DNA from: Escherichia coli
GTDB lineage: Bacteria; Pseudomonadota; Gammaproteobacteria; Enterobacterales; Enterobacteriaceae
DNA: 64,000 nucleotides
Reading direction: 5' to 3' (one strand)
NCBI RefSeq assembly: GCF_013122565.1
Contig: NZ_CP053258.1
This document shows, piece after piece, positions 4,790 to 11,085 of the stretch (the stretch's first letter is position 1; each line of letters begins with the position of its first letter). The translations under genes were made by a program, and so were the position numbers. A model generated the notes under the pieces. It saw only the letters and a list, made by a program, of their open reading frames with translations. It ran no database searches and was not told where the DNA came from.

Positions 4790-5425
4790 TTAGATGTCAA
4801 CTTTCTCTTTGTATTCACAAAGATCTTCAATAATACAAGAGCCACAGCGAGGCTTGCGGGCAATGCAGGTATAACGCCCGTGCAGGATCAACCAATGGTG
4901 GCAGTCGACTTTAAACTCTGCCGGAACCACTTTCAGTAGCTTTTCTTCTACCTGTTCGACGTTTTTCCCCGGCGCAAATTGAGTACGATTACAAACGCGG
5001 AAAATGTGCGTGTCGACAGCAATAGTCGGCCAGCCGAATGCAGTGTTTAATACGACGTTGGCTGTTTTACGACCTACGCCGGGCAGGGCTTCAAGCGCAG
5101 CACGATCTTCCGGAACCTCGCCATTATGCTGCTCCAGTAAGATACGGCAGGTTTTGATGATATTTTCTGCTTTGCTGTTATAAAGCCCAATCGTTTTGAT
5201 ATAGGTTTTCACCCCTTCAACGCCCAGTTCAAGCATCGCTGCAGGCGTATTCGCCACCGGGTAGAGTTTCGCCGTCGCCTTATTAACACTGACATCGGTC
5301 GCCTGAGCGGAAAGCAGTACGGCAATCAACAATTCAAAAGGCGAACTGAAATTAAGCTCGGTGGTGGGATGAGGATTGTTCTCACGCAGGCGAGTGAGGA
5401 TCTCCAGGCGTTTTGCTTTGTTCAT
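4790..5425 (-). CDS. nth: endonuclease III (DNA glycosylase/AP lyase)
   Basis: 211-aa ORF with C-terminal Cys cluster (CIARKPRCGSCIIEDLC); start ATG overlaps rsxE stop (ATGA). Confidence 0.93.
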   Translation of the reverse strand: MNKAKRLEILTRLRENNPHPTTELNFSSPFELLIAVLLSAQATDVSVNKATAKLYPVANTPAAMLELGVEGVKTYIKTIGLYNSKAENIIKTCRILLEQHNGEVPEDRAALEALPGVGRKTANVVLNTAFGWPTIAVDTHIFRVCNRTQFAPGKNVEQVEEKLLKVVPAEFKVDCHHWLILHGRYTCIARKPRCGSCIIEDLCEYKEKVDI

Positions 5426-6120
5426 CAGACATTCCCTGTTTCACCGTTTGGCAATGCACGTTCGGCAGCTGCTTCAGTACGGCGCTTTTTCATTCTTTCA
5501 TCAATCAGGTATTTTCCTGCCAGCATCAGTCCCAGGCCAATAAATGCACCTGGTGGCAGCATCGCCAACAGGAAAGGGGAGTCGGTGTGGAAAATCTCCA
5601 CGCGTAATACTTTTGCCCAGCTACCTAACAGCGCATCAGCACCGTCAAACAATGTGCCATTGCCGATAATTTCGCGTAGTGAACCCAGCACGAACATGGC
5701 GCAGGTTGCGCCCATACCAATTGAAAAGCCGTCCAGTGCCGAAAGCGCCGGACCTTTTTTGGCGGCGAAGGCTTCAGCGCGGCCCACAACGATACAGTTA
5801 GTGACAATAAGCGGAATAAAAATCCCTAATGATTGATACAGGCCAAAGGCGTAGGCGTTGATCAGCATCTGTACAGCGCTGACCACCGAGGCGATGATCA
5901 TCACGTAAATGGGAATGCGGATCTCGGCTGGCGTCCAGTGACGCAGCGTCGAAATGGTCAGGTTGGTCAGCGTCAGTACCAGCGTAGTCGCAAGTCCTAA
6001 ACCCAGAGCGTTAGTGGCAGTGGACGTGACCGCCAACAGAGGACAAAGGCCGAGCAACTGGACCAGCGCAGAGTTGTTTTTCCACAACCCCTGAACAATA
6101 ACGTCTTTAATTTCGCTCAC
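5425..6120 (-). CDS. rsxE: Rsx/Rnf electron transport complex subunit E
   Basis: 231-aa membrane ORF in rsx operon context. Confidence 0.9.
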
Positions 6121-6123
6121 GCT

Positions 6124-6744
6124 TTATTCTCCACAGGCAGGAAGTTGAGAAAGTTGTGCCGGTAACGTCTGAGCGTACAATCCGGCGCGTTTTACCGCAT
6201 TAACCACCGCGCGGGGAGTAATCGTCGCGCCGGTGAACTGGTCGAAATCACCACCATCTTTCTTCACCGCCCAGTGCGCATCATCCGCACCACTGATTTT
6301 TTTACCCGCAAAATGGGTGATCCAGTCAGAAAGGCGCAGTTCGATTTTATCGCCAAGCCCTGGCGTTTCGTGGTGCTCTGTCACGCGCGTGCCAAGTACC
6401 GTGCCGTTAAAATCGGCTCCCACCAGCAGCTGAATCGCACCGGAATAGCCATCTGGCGCGGTTGCTTCCAGAACGGCGGCTACCGGTTTGTCATTCTGTT
6501 TGGCGATGTAAACCCGATGCTCACCTTTACCTAACTCTGGCGCAGTTACCAGATAGCAACTCTGTGCCAGCGCATTGTTATAGCGTTCGGCTGGCAGCAC
6601 CTGATCAAATAACGCCTTTTGTTGCAGACTGGCCTGTTCAGCAATCGTCGTTTTGGTCATCTGGTTGATGGCCGCAGTTAACCCTGTTGAACCCGCTGCA
6701 AATAGCGCCAACGTAATGCCGTGTTTTCGGATAGTTTTCAGCAT
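6124..6744 (-). CDS. rsxG: Rsx/Rnf complex subunit G
   Basis: 206-aa ORF with N-terminal signal/anchor, operon context. Confidence 0.9.
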
Positions 6745-7806: not shown

Positions 7807-9933
7807 TTAGTCCTCGTTTACAACCTTTTGCTGGGCGGCTTTTTTGGCCTGAACGCGGGCAATAGCCGCGGCAACTGCCGCTTTGCGCGGATCAACCTGT
7901 TCTTCTGGTTCTGCGTTAGTCTGTTGCTGTTCCAGCTTGCGCGCTTTGGCACGGGCAATAGCCGCTTCGACGGCAGCTTTGCGCGGATCAACCTGTTCTT
8001 CTGGCTCCGCATTGGCCTGTTGCTGTTCCAGCTTGCGTGCTTTGGCGCGGGCAATAGCGGCTTCGACGGCGGCTTTGCGCGGATCGACCTGTTGTTCTGG
8101 CTCGGCATTAGCCTGTTGCTGTTCCAGCTTGCGTGCTTTGGCACGGGCAATAGCGGCTTCGACGGCGGCTTTGCGCGGATCGACCTGTTCTTCTGGTTCC
8201 GCATTAGCCTGTTGCTGTTCCAGCTTGCGCGCTTTGGCGCGGGCGATAGCTGCTTCAACGGCAGTTTTACGTGGATCAGCAACGGTTGCTGCGTCGTTAG
8301 TTTGCTCCAGTTCTGCCTGTTTCGCTCTGGCTTGCGCTTTACGGGCTTCCCGTGCTGCAATAATTGCACTGTTATCCGGGCGTTCGCCCGCTTTAATCAC
8401 AATAGGCTGTGTAGCCTGGGCCTGTTTCTCTTTCACCCGCGCCAGAGCGGCAGCAATCGCATCTTTATCTTTGGCTGCAGGTTGAACGGCTGCGCTCTTA
8501 TGTCGTTCAAGGCGAGCCGCTTTTTCGCGCTCCAGACGAGCCTGGCGCGCTTCGAAACGCGCTTTGGCTTCTGCGGCGCGCTTTTCTTCCTGACGAATAG
8601 CCGCAATTTCAGCTTTTTCCTGACGGAAATATTGCACCAGGGGAATATTGCTCGGGCAAACCCACGCGCAAGCCCCACATTCAATGCAGTCGGCAATGTT
8701 ATGCGTGGTAGCTTTATCGTGTTGCTGACCTTTGCTGAACCAGTACAACTGTTGCGGCAAAAGATCCGCAGGGCAGGCGTCAGCACAGGCGCTACACCGG
8801 ATGCAGCTTTGTTCTTCCTGTGGTTCGCCAAGCTCATTGGCAGAGGGAGCCAACAGACAGTTGGTAATCTTTACGACCGGGACATCCAGCCATGGCAAGG
8901 TAAAGCCCATTAGCGGGCCGCCCATAATCACCATTTGATCGGCAGAGGGGCAGAATCCGGCGTCATTCAATAAATGACGCACTGGCGTCCCCAGCCGTGC
9001 CCAGACGTTGCCCGGGCGAGCGATTGCTTCGCCAGTCAGGGTTACGACACGCTCGGTAATTGGCTCGCCATCAATAACGGCACGTTTCACTGCATAAGCA
9101 GTGCCGACGTTTTGCATTAATACGCCGATATCGGATGAACGCCCGCCATGTGGAACCTGCTTCCCGGTCAGAATGTAGGTTAATTGTTTAGCACCGCCAG
9201 AAGGATATTTGGTTGGAATCACCCGCAGAGAAATATCGTGAGAGTCCGCCAGCACCGCGCGCAGCATGGAAATCGCCTGCGGTTTGTTATCTTCAATGCC
9301 GATAAGAATTTCGCGTGGCTGCAGAATATGCGCAAGAATGCGAATACCCTCTACGACCTGAGCCGCGCAATCCTGCATTAAACGGTCATCGGCGGTAATG
9401 TACGGCTCGCACTCAGCAGCGTTGATAATCAACGTCTCAATCTTATCTCCGCCGCCCTGCAATTTAACGCCTGTCGGGAATCCTGCACCGCCCAGCCCGG
9501 CAACACCAAACTGATGAATGCGCTCGATTAACTCTTCGCGACGGCGAGAGCGATAATCGGCCCAGCCGTCTCGTGGGATCCAGCAGTCTTCACCATCGGC
9601 ATCAATAATCACGCTTAATTCAGCTAAAGCTGAAGGATGAGCCGTAGAGTGGGGCGCAATAGCCGTAACGGTACCCGAGGTGGGCGCGTGAACAGGCAGC
9701 ATTTTGCCGCGACCACGGGTAAGCGGCTGGCCGCGCAATACTTTATCGCCGACGCTAACGCACAACTCACCTTCAGCGCCAATATGCTGTTTCAGTGGAA
9801 TAACAAAACGCTGCGCCAGGGGTACCTGGCGCAGGGGGGTACCGTTGGACTGGGTTTTCATCTCCGGTGGATGGATGCCGCCGTTGAAATCCCAGATTTT
9901 ATTTTTTCTGAATGCAGAGAATAACTTAAGCAT
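7807..9933 (-). CDS. rsxC: Rsx/Rnf complex subunit C, with C-terminal 32-aa tandem repeats
   Basis: 708-aa ORF; two 4Fe-4S Cys motifs ([24 protein letters not shown]); C-terminal repeats [32 protein letters not shown]. Confidence 0.9.
7853..8290. repeat. 96-bp tandem repeat array (about 4.5 copies) inside the rsxC 3' region
   Basis: unit ctttgcgcggatc...cgacggcag recurs at 7881, 7977, 8073 and 8169 (period 96) with a diverged partial copy at each end. Confidence 0.9.
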
Positions 9934-10504
9934 GGTGTTCCACGGGAATGATACGCACGGGAATGGTGTTCAGATCCCATTTCCAGGAGTCAGGTGTTTC
10001 TGCGACCGGTTGCAACGAGATGCAGTGCGTCGGGCACGGATCAACACATAAATTGCAGCCCGTACAGAGTTCACTCATTACCGTATGCATGGCTCGGGTA
10101 GCGCCAACGATGGCGTCTACCGGACACGCCTGAATACATTTAGTGCAGCCAATACAGTTATTTTCATCAATAACCGCCACCATCCGCGCAGGCGTTAGCT
10201 CTTGCGCTTCGCCATCCAGCGGCTGCGGTTCGACATTAAGCAACTCGGCAATTTTTAGCATCACAGCTTCGCCACCAGGGGCGCAACGGTTGATTTTTTC
10301 ACCGTTACAGCTGATGGCTTCCGCGTAGGGGCGACAGCCGGGATAACCGCACTGACCACACTGGCTCTGCGGTAAGATTTCGTCAATTTTCTCAACGACC
10401 GGATCGTCTTCCACCGCAAAACGGCGGGAGGCATAACCCAGAATGGCGCCAAACGCCAGGCCCAGCAGGCTCACGGCGGCAACGGCAATCCAGATAGCAT
10501 TCAT
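9926..10504 (-). CDS. rsxB: Rsx/Rnf complex subunit B (Fe-S protein)
   Basis: 192-aa ORF with ferredoxin-type Cys motifs; overlaps rsxC start by 8 nt. Confidence 0.9.
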
Positions 10505-11085
10505 TACAACTTCACCAAACCACTAAAGCCCATAAAGGCCAGAGACATAAGACCTGCGGTAATTAACGCAATGGCATTACCGCGAAAAGGTGCCGGGACA
10601 TCAGCCACAGCAAGGCGTTCGCGGATGGCGGCGAAGAGAACCATCACCAGCGAGAAACCGACAGCGGCGGAAAAACCGTACAGCGCCGACTGCAAGAAAT
10701 TGTGCCCGAGATTGATATTCAGCAACGCCACGCCGAGCACGGCACAGTTGGTGGTGATAAGCGGCAAAAAAATCCCCAGCAGACGGTAAAGCACCGGGCT
10801 GGTTTTGCGCACCACCATTTCGGTGAACTGCACAACCACAGCAATCACCAGAATAAACGCCAGGGTGCGCAGGTAAATCAGATTAAGTGGGATCAAAATC
10901 CACGTATCAATAAGCCAGGCGCAAATAGACGCCAGCGTCATCACAAACGTTGTTGCCAGCCCCATGCCCATCGCGGTTTCCAGCTTTTTGGAAACCCCCA
11001 TAAACGGACAGAGACCGAGAAACTTGACCAGTACAAAGTTATTGACCAGTACAGTTCCGACAAACAGTAACAGGTAGTCAGTCAT
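10504..11085 (-). CDS. rsxA: Rsx/Rnf complex subunit A
   Basis: 193-aa membrane ORF; stop overlaps rsxB start. Confidence 0.9.

Follow-up and report, generated by a model that had tools for sequence, protein, structure and literature searches.

A window of 64,000 nucleotides (nt) of Escherichia coli DNA (NCBI RefSeq assembly GCF_013122565.1, contig NZ_CP053258.1; the window means this whole stretch) was found to carry seven intact genes, rsxA, rsxB, rsxC, rsxD, rsxG, rsxE and nth, lying head to tail on its minus strand. We consider it highly probable that this locus is the Escherichia rsxABCDGE-nth operon, in which a single message carries all seven genes and the short stop-to-start distances permit reinitiation. 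Translational coupling of the unit appeared plausible from the geometry of its junctions and their conservation. The unit has been described before, with its gene order and junctions, and the observation is an ordinary one with nothing new in it.

All seven genes were recognized as intact open reading frames (ORFs) both from an ORF listing and by direct reading, and their window-based coordinates are collected in Table 1 together with those of the other features of the locus. Every one of the seven products exceeded the cut-off of its NCBIfam equivalog model, and all six Rsx subunits (A to E and G) were thereby represented. RsxB and RsxC each contain two CxxCxxCxxxC motifs of the 4Fe-4S ferredoxin type. 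When the flavinylation-type pattern (S/T)GAT was sought in RsxG and RsxD, the former displayed TGAT at residue 171, and the sequences SGAT and SQAT were present as candidates in the latter. Nth, a protein of the HhH-GPD fold, was shown to retain the catalytic residues K120 and D138 as well as the C-terminal Cx6Cx2Cx5C motif for a [4Fe-4S] cluster at residues 187–203. The initial annotation had described a seven-gene unit ending in the DNA-repair gene nth, and the family models, the reference annotations and the name used in RegulonDB are all in agreement with that description. The interval it assigned to the unit, 5425–11085, covers rsxA to rsxE and leaves nth outside, and the strand had not been stated. 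A match to our query spanning the locus was detected in 5424 of the 5426 complete E. coli genomes. The unit is flanked upstream by a 76-nt spacer between ydgK and rsxA and downstream by 610 nt separating nth from dtpA. In addition, an Rfam scan of positions 4000–12500 on both strands returned zero families at threshold, and thus no leader, riboswitch or small RNA accounts for the arrangement.

Table 1. Genes, repeat and putative transcription signals of the rsxABCDGE-nth locus (window coordinates)
Feature	Coordinates	Strand	Description	Match or source
rsxA	10504..11085	-	193 aa, membrane subunit, RnfA/NqrE-like	NF003481 equivalog, 364.7 bits (cut-off 240)
rsxB	9926..10504	-	192 aa, Fe-S subunit	NF003475, 336.6 bits (203)
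rsxC	7807..9933	-	708 aa, NAD(P)H-binding/Fe-S subunit	NF003454, 866.4 bits (345)
rsxD	6748..7806	-	352 aa, membrane subunit	NF002011, 634.3 bits (415)
rsxG	6124..6744	-	206 aa, FMN-binding subunit	NF002519, 361.3 bits (178)
rsxE	5425..6120	-	231 aa, membrane subunit, GTG start	NF009070, 365.8 bits (184)
nth	4790..5425	-	211 aa, endonuclease III	NF007978, 486.3 bits (405), residues 1-211 on 1-211
Tandem repeat	7856..8278	-	96-bp unit, 4.4 copies, RsxC C-terminus	Tandem Repeats Finder
Promoter-like site (candidate only)	11114..11142	-	TTGTCG-17 nt-GATAAT, ydgK-rsxA spacer	consensus scan, 9/12 matches
Terminator-like hairpin	11101..11140	-	GUCGCCUG...UAGGCGGC then U6, downstream of ydgK	RNA fold
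Hairpin past nth	4764..4783	-	GGGGUAA-CACCGA-UUACCCC, 6 nt past nth stop, then U-rich stretch	consensus scan and RNA fold
Intragenic hairpin	9811..9834	-	CUGCGCCAGG-UACC-CCUGGCGCAG, then CGUUUUGUUAUU; inside rsxC, near 5' end	RNA fold

The distances at the six junctions, counted from the stop codon of one gene to the start codon of the next, bore out what had been claimed for them. Overlaps of 1–8 nt had been reported at three junctions and were indeed present: the rsxB start overlaps the rsxA stop in TAATG (−1 nt), the rsxC start lies inside the end of rsxB (−8 nt), and the nth ATG overlaps the TGA of rsxE in TGATG (−1 nt). The gaps of 0–3 nt ascribed to the remaining junctions were found as well, with the rsxD ATG abutting the rsxC stop in TAAATG (0 nt) and with distances of +3 nt at both rsxD/G and rsxG/E. 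Junctions of 3 nt or less accounted for all six in the operon versus 3 of the 25 other same-strand junctions within the same 50 kb (Fisher p = 1.1e-4). With one strand used throughout and a largest gap of 3 nt, no room is left for an intergenic promoter or terminator. Moreover, the aligned start codons were common to 59–80 other species, the N-terminal residues were conserved and the nucleotide variation fell mostly at third positions, and hence the annotated starts are no artefact. The N-terminus of rsxC was conserved in 61 species, and most other genera have ATG at the position aligned with the GTG start of rsxE.

The conservation of this packing was assessed in 80 Enterobacterales loci, namely the best matches to the Nth query with one genome per species, ranging from Escherichia to Proteus, Xenorhabdus, Yersinia and Pantoea. 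An rsxE homologue was located directly upstream of nth in all 80 species. The A/B distance was −1 in 60 of 63 species, the B/C distance −8 in 58 of 63, and the C/D distance 0 in 49 of 64. At G/E, values of −8, −4, +2 or +3 were observed in 75 of 78 species, and 77 of the 78 had a distance of 3 nt or less. The D/G distance was mostly +9 or +10, within a range of −1 to +22. The E/nth junction overlapped by −1, −4 or −8 in 68 of the 80 species, taking the forms TAATG, TGATG, ATGA, GTGA and −8 variants. That its closeness was kept while its sequence changed provides the best indirect argument for selection on closeness itself. Four loci (L024, L029, L014 and L081) with scattered junctions, which look like frameshifted or low-quality assemblies or symbiont pseudogenisation, were left uninterpreted.

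To characterize the initiation sites, the anti-Shine-Dalgarno pairing energy was computed over the 20 nt before each start. The values for rsxA (−2.5 kcal/mol), rsxB (−3.8 kcal/mol) and rsxC (−3.3 kcal/mol) could not be told apart from those at random positions of the operon, and 23% and 32% of background 20-mers pair at least as well as the regions before rsxB and rsxC, respectively. An independent ribosome-binding site is therefore lacking at exactly the two junctions, A/B and B/C, whose overlaps vary least, which fits termination-reinitiation. With no more than 0–8 nt between a stop and the start that follows it, a ribosome that has finished one gene could reinitiate on the following one. 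Such reinitiation would most likely be needed for rsxB and rsxC, which overlap their upstream genes and have no Shine-Dalgarno site of their own, and would probably be just an aid for rsxD, rsxG, rsxE and nth, whose sites are recognisable. As judged from the sequence, rsxB and rsxC are thus likely to be coupled, and the other four genes may be but need not. Masking and unmasking of the start codons was also considered as a coupling mechanism and was rejected, as the junction folds were no better than shuffled controls.

As regards transcription, the unit is depicted as "the rsxABCDGE-nth operon (regulonDB)" in PMC5021804, and all seven genes are reported in PMC2907692 to increase jointly when rpoS is mutated in O157:H7. 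A single message would most likely be initiated at a promoter within the ydgK-rsxA spacer or farther upstream and would most likely end at the hairpin just past nth. The promoter-like site of the spacer, if used, would start a transcript approximately 21 nt upstream of the rsxA ATG, and it overlaps the terminator-like hairpin with its U6 run that follows ydgK and would end the transcripts of that gene. The coordinates of this hairpin were taken from the dot-bracket of an RNA fold of positions 11086–11165 (−20.3 kcal/mol, z = −1.9); transcripts from the promoter-like site would hold only the 3' half of it. The hairpin on the nth side was reported by the scan on the plus strand, its stem being palindromic, and folded with −12.1 kcal/mol (z = −2.7); it is a candidate end of the transcription unit. 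When transcript ends were sought in the supplementary tables of PMC6131387, the rsx genes and nth were absent from them.

Within rsxC, a strong hairpin with a 10-bp GC-rich stem and a U-rich run after it, picked up by the consensus scan and by folding (−21.7 kcal/mol, z = −3.4), sits 15–27 nt past the PPE codons (9862–9870). PMC5021804 describes a terminator in rsxC located 16 nt downstream of a PPE motif and NusA-dependent in vitro, and in connection with this intragenic terminator states that the distal transcript is down 1.8-fold in an efp mutant. The hairpin at 9811–9834 corresponds to this published NusA-dependent terminator. It does not part nth from the rsx genes and would instead lower everything downstream when ribosomes stall, and ongoing translation would in that way matter to the expression of the distal genes. 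Outside Escherichia, the hairpin was strong in some neighbouring genera only, and the HPPEMK motif containing PPE was conserved in all.

A number of observations nevertheless weigh against coupling or against the unit as drawn above. Overlapping or abutting stop and start codons are the commonest arrangement inside bacterial operons, and the geometry alone is consequently weak evidence. Four of the genes have Shine-Dalgarno sites of their own, good ones in the cases of rsxE (−6.4 kcal/mol, GGAGA) and rsxD (−5.9 kcal/mol, GAGGA) and weaker ones in those of nth (−5.1 kcal/mol) and rsxG (−4.5 kcal/mol). In RNA folds of 85-nt windows centred on the starts, none of the junctions was more stable than shuffled sequences: the z-scores ranged from −0.4 to +1.9 at the six junctions, with the rsxE/nth junction less structured than the shuffles (z = +1.9), and the rsxA start gave −1.5. 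No demonstration that downstream translation depends on upstream translation was found in the literature consulted. The consensus scans for promoters and terminators returned no more sites than shuffled sequence, so that the sites they located are candidates only, and the NusA-dependent terminator reported inside rsxC implies that transcription along the unit is conditional. The E/nth distance was +9 to +16 nt in Proteus, Providencia, Xenorhabdus, Dickeya, Budvicia and one Enterobacter. Finally, seven species, four of Yersinia and three of Serratia (loci L071, L062, L052, L053, L079, L080 and L082), have the unit split after rsxC, where a gap of 1.3–1.5 kb before rsxD divides it into rsxABC and rsxDGE-nth. 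Both of the two loci in which the gap was looked at were shown to hold a gene on the opposite strand (L071, 6194–7081, minus; L062, 6308–7201, minus), whose product of 295–297 residues combines AraC-HTH and GyrI-like domains and is Rob-like by domain architecture, and a spacer of approximately 490 nt ahead of rsxD. This AraC/GyrI-like gene inside the operon hints at a lineage-specific wiring of the redox system to a MarA/SoxS/Rob-type response.

Part of this evidence is what would be expected of a compact operon without real coupling, in which co-transcribed genes are each initiated independently at sites inside the upstream gene and the overlaps result incidentally from selection for a compact operon or from drifting stops and starts. 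The recognisable Shine-Dalgarno sites of rsxD, rsxE, nth and rsxG, the unstructured junctions, which leave the starts accessible, and the drift at rsxD/G and, in several genera, at E/nth while the arrangement is kept all point in this direction. Such independence does not readily explain why the overlaps at rsxB and rsxC are nearly invariant although their Shine-Dalgarno regions are no better than random positions, nor why the E/nth overlap has been kept through at least five sequence solutions, which suggests that closeness is maintained. Taken together, uncoupled initiation throughout the unit seems to us possible but rather unlikely. The translational coupling read from the junctions in the initial annotation accordingly stands as a reasonable deduction from the geometry, strengthened at rsxB and rsxC by near-invariant overlaps and poor Shine-Dalgarno regions; as a claim for the whole unit, it is called into doubt by the sites that rsxD, rsxE, nth and rsxG possess, by junctions no more structured than shuffles and by the loosening or splitting of the unit in some genera.

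Two further possibilities concern nth. The gene might be expressed largely alone, its promoter lying within rsxE or another of the distal rsx genes, and its terminal position in the operon would then have little bearing on its expression. Long operons often contain internal promoters, and the split in Yersinia and Serratia indicates that distal segments can have promoters of their own, since rsxDGE-nth must there be expressed without the rsxA promoter, behind an opposite-strand gene and the spacer of approximately 490 nt. In the window, however, the consensus scan revealed no minus-strand promoter-like site in rsxG or rsxE upstream of nth, the only one nearby lying inside nth itself. Moreover, nth and nei are reportedly the terminal genes of operons, as the title of Gifford and Wallace (2000) has it, and in the rpoS mutant of PMC2907692 the change in nth parallels that in the six rsx genes. 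Separate expression of nth was thus judged improbable.

It is also conceivable that nth follows rsxE or rnfE not by accident but through a physical or redox partnership of their products, in which endonuclease III would serve Rsx/Rnf as an accessory or be its client, the redox state of its [4Fe-4S] cluster, for instance its oxidation, would be set by Rsx, and coupling would fix the relative amounts. We know of no biochemical link of Nth with Rsx/Rnf. Both are Fe-S proteins tied to oxidative stress, and the order rsxE-nth held in 80 of 80 species. In a survey of the genomic contexts of eight distant RnfE cluster representatives (41–52% identity to RsxE), a Nth homologue followed rnfE in six, in one of them after an intervening gene of 176 residues. 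One of these contexts belongs to a reduced genome (L086, GCA_005081945.1, 643,931 bp), which keeps rnfABCDGE-nth at 3593–9327 with nth 7 nt past rnfE. In the other two contexts, one of which (L092) has the order CDGEAB, nth was absent after rnfE, and this counts against the partnership as well as against the constancy of the seven-gene unit. According to PMC4014512, it has been proposed that endonuclease III is a further subunit of RNF, but the same paper states that other bacteria do not have nth in their rnf operons and calls its role obscure. Furthermore, the SoxR-reducing system is defined as RsxABCDGE with RseC and ApbE, Nth not being included, in PMC6612552, PMC11729352 and PMC12174285. 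A direct partnership was therefore considered highly improbable, both as a general account of why nth follows rsxE or rnfE and in the specific form of Rsx controlling the cluster of Nth.

Gene fusions were encountered in the same material. Long RnfE representatives (336–435 aa) were considered as RnfE-Nth fusions and rejected, as their Pfam assignment was Rnf-Nqr without HhH-GPD. In one of them from a distant cluster, P0180 (389 aa), the Rnf-type domain is fused to RseC_MucC, which fits the functional partnership reported for RseC and the Rsx/Rnf complex. Separately, P0058 (396 aa), encoded on a single metagenomic ENA contig of 3.6 kb, is an in-frame fusion of RsxE (residues 1 to ~204) to Nth (from ~21) arising from a deletion across the overlapping junction, and is either a real variant or an assembly artefact.

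The tandem repeat of rsxC encodes 32-residue units rich in Ala, Lys and Glu, and at the protein level it occupies residues 553–708; its copy number differs among strains. The length of RsxC was 708, 740 (K-12) and 772 aa in three E. coli and ranged from approximately 590 to 1000 aa across Enterobacterales. The whole query was aligned in one piece in 1134 of 5424 E. coli genomes, and the piecewise alignment probably stems from this variation in RsxC length. The DNA is approximately 1% diverged from the closest of the 5426 complete E. coli genomes, none of which exceeded 99.1% over 7 kb. The mismatches to the closest E. coli were spread evenly, and the locus was collinear with that of strain CT02 (NZ_CP081698.1, L003) at least through 4000–11500.

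The discovery value of these observations is small, because the E. coli K-12 reference annotation and RegulonDB already carry the operon, its gene order and its junctions, and because genes for multi-subunit complexes normally have their stops and starts closely spaced. They have a practical bearing in that insertions and nonsense mutations in rsx genes are likely to be polar on the downstream subunits and on nth, and any phenotypes of rsx mutants, mutator or oxidative-damage ones included, thus call for in-frame deletions and complementation controls. That the gene of a DNA-repair glycosylase is so constantly tied to the operon of a membrane redox complex is a small puzzle.

Functionally, PMC6612552, PMC11729352 and PMC12174285 (citing Koo et al., 2003; Lee et al., 2022) state that RsxABCDGE together with RseC and ApbE reduces oxidised SoxR. 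The Rsx complex with these two partners would accordingly re-reduce the [2Fe-2S] cluster of SoxR and so turn off the superoxide response, and the seventh and last gene encodes endonuclease III, a [4Fe-4S] DNA glycosylase. Compared with E. coli K-12 MG1655 (b1627–b1633), the locus agrees in its seven genes, in their order and relative strands, in all six junction distances, in the 76-nt spacer to ydgK and in the 610-nt gap to dtpA. The gene boundaries coincided in K-12 and CT02, with cnu/ydgT, ydgK, dtpA and gstA as common flanks. The operon differs from that of K-12 only allelically, the difference in RsxC amounting to one 32-residue repeat fewer plus nine substitutions. The gene nei (endonuclease VIII) is likewise said, by the title of Gifford and Wallace (2000), to be the terminal gene of its own operon and is, like nth, a gene for a glycosylase of oxidised pyrimidines; it belongs to a different locus and a different protein family.

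Six homologous subunits make up the Rnf complexes, encoded as RnfABCDGE in Rhodobacter capsulatus, Vibrio cholerae and Azotobacter vinelandii and as RnfCDGEAB in Acetobacterium woodii and clostridia. The window proteins also pass the TIGR "RnfABCDGE type" subfamily models and share the Fe-S motifs in B and C and the flavinylation-type motif in G. In function the E. coli complex differs from them, being assigned to the reduction of SoxR and not to nitrogen fixation or to energy conservation of the ferredoxin:NAD+ type. The ABCDGE order with a trailing nth was typical of the sampled Enterobacterales and of some distant relatives, in contrast to the CDGEAB order without nth in L092. As for the Na+-translocating NADH:quinone reductase (Na+-NQR, nqrABCDEF), RsxA and RsxE, RsxD, RsxG and RsxC gave sub-threshold matches to NqrE/D, NqrB, NqrC and NqrA, respectively. 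The scores were far below the cut-offs, and RsxB is present here in place of an NqrF homologue, which is absent. Such matches are expected from the common ancestry of Rnf and Na+-NQR discussed in PMC4014512.

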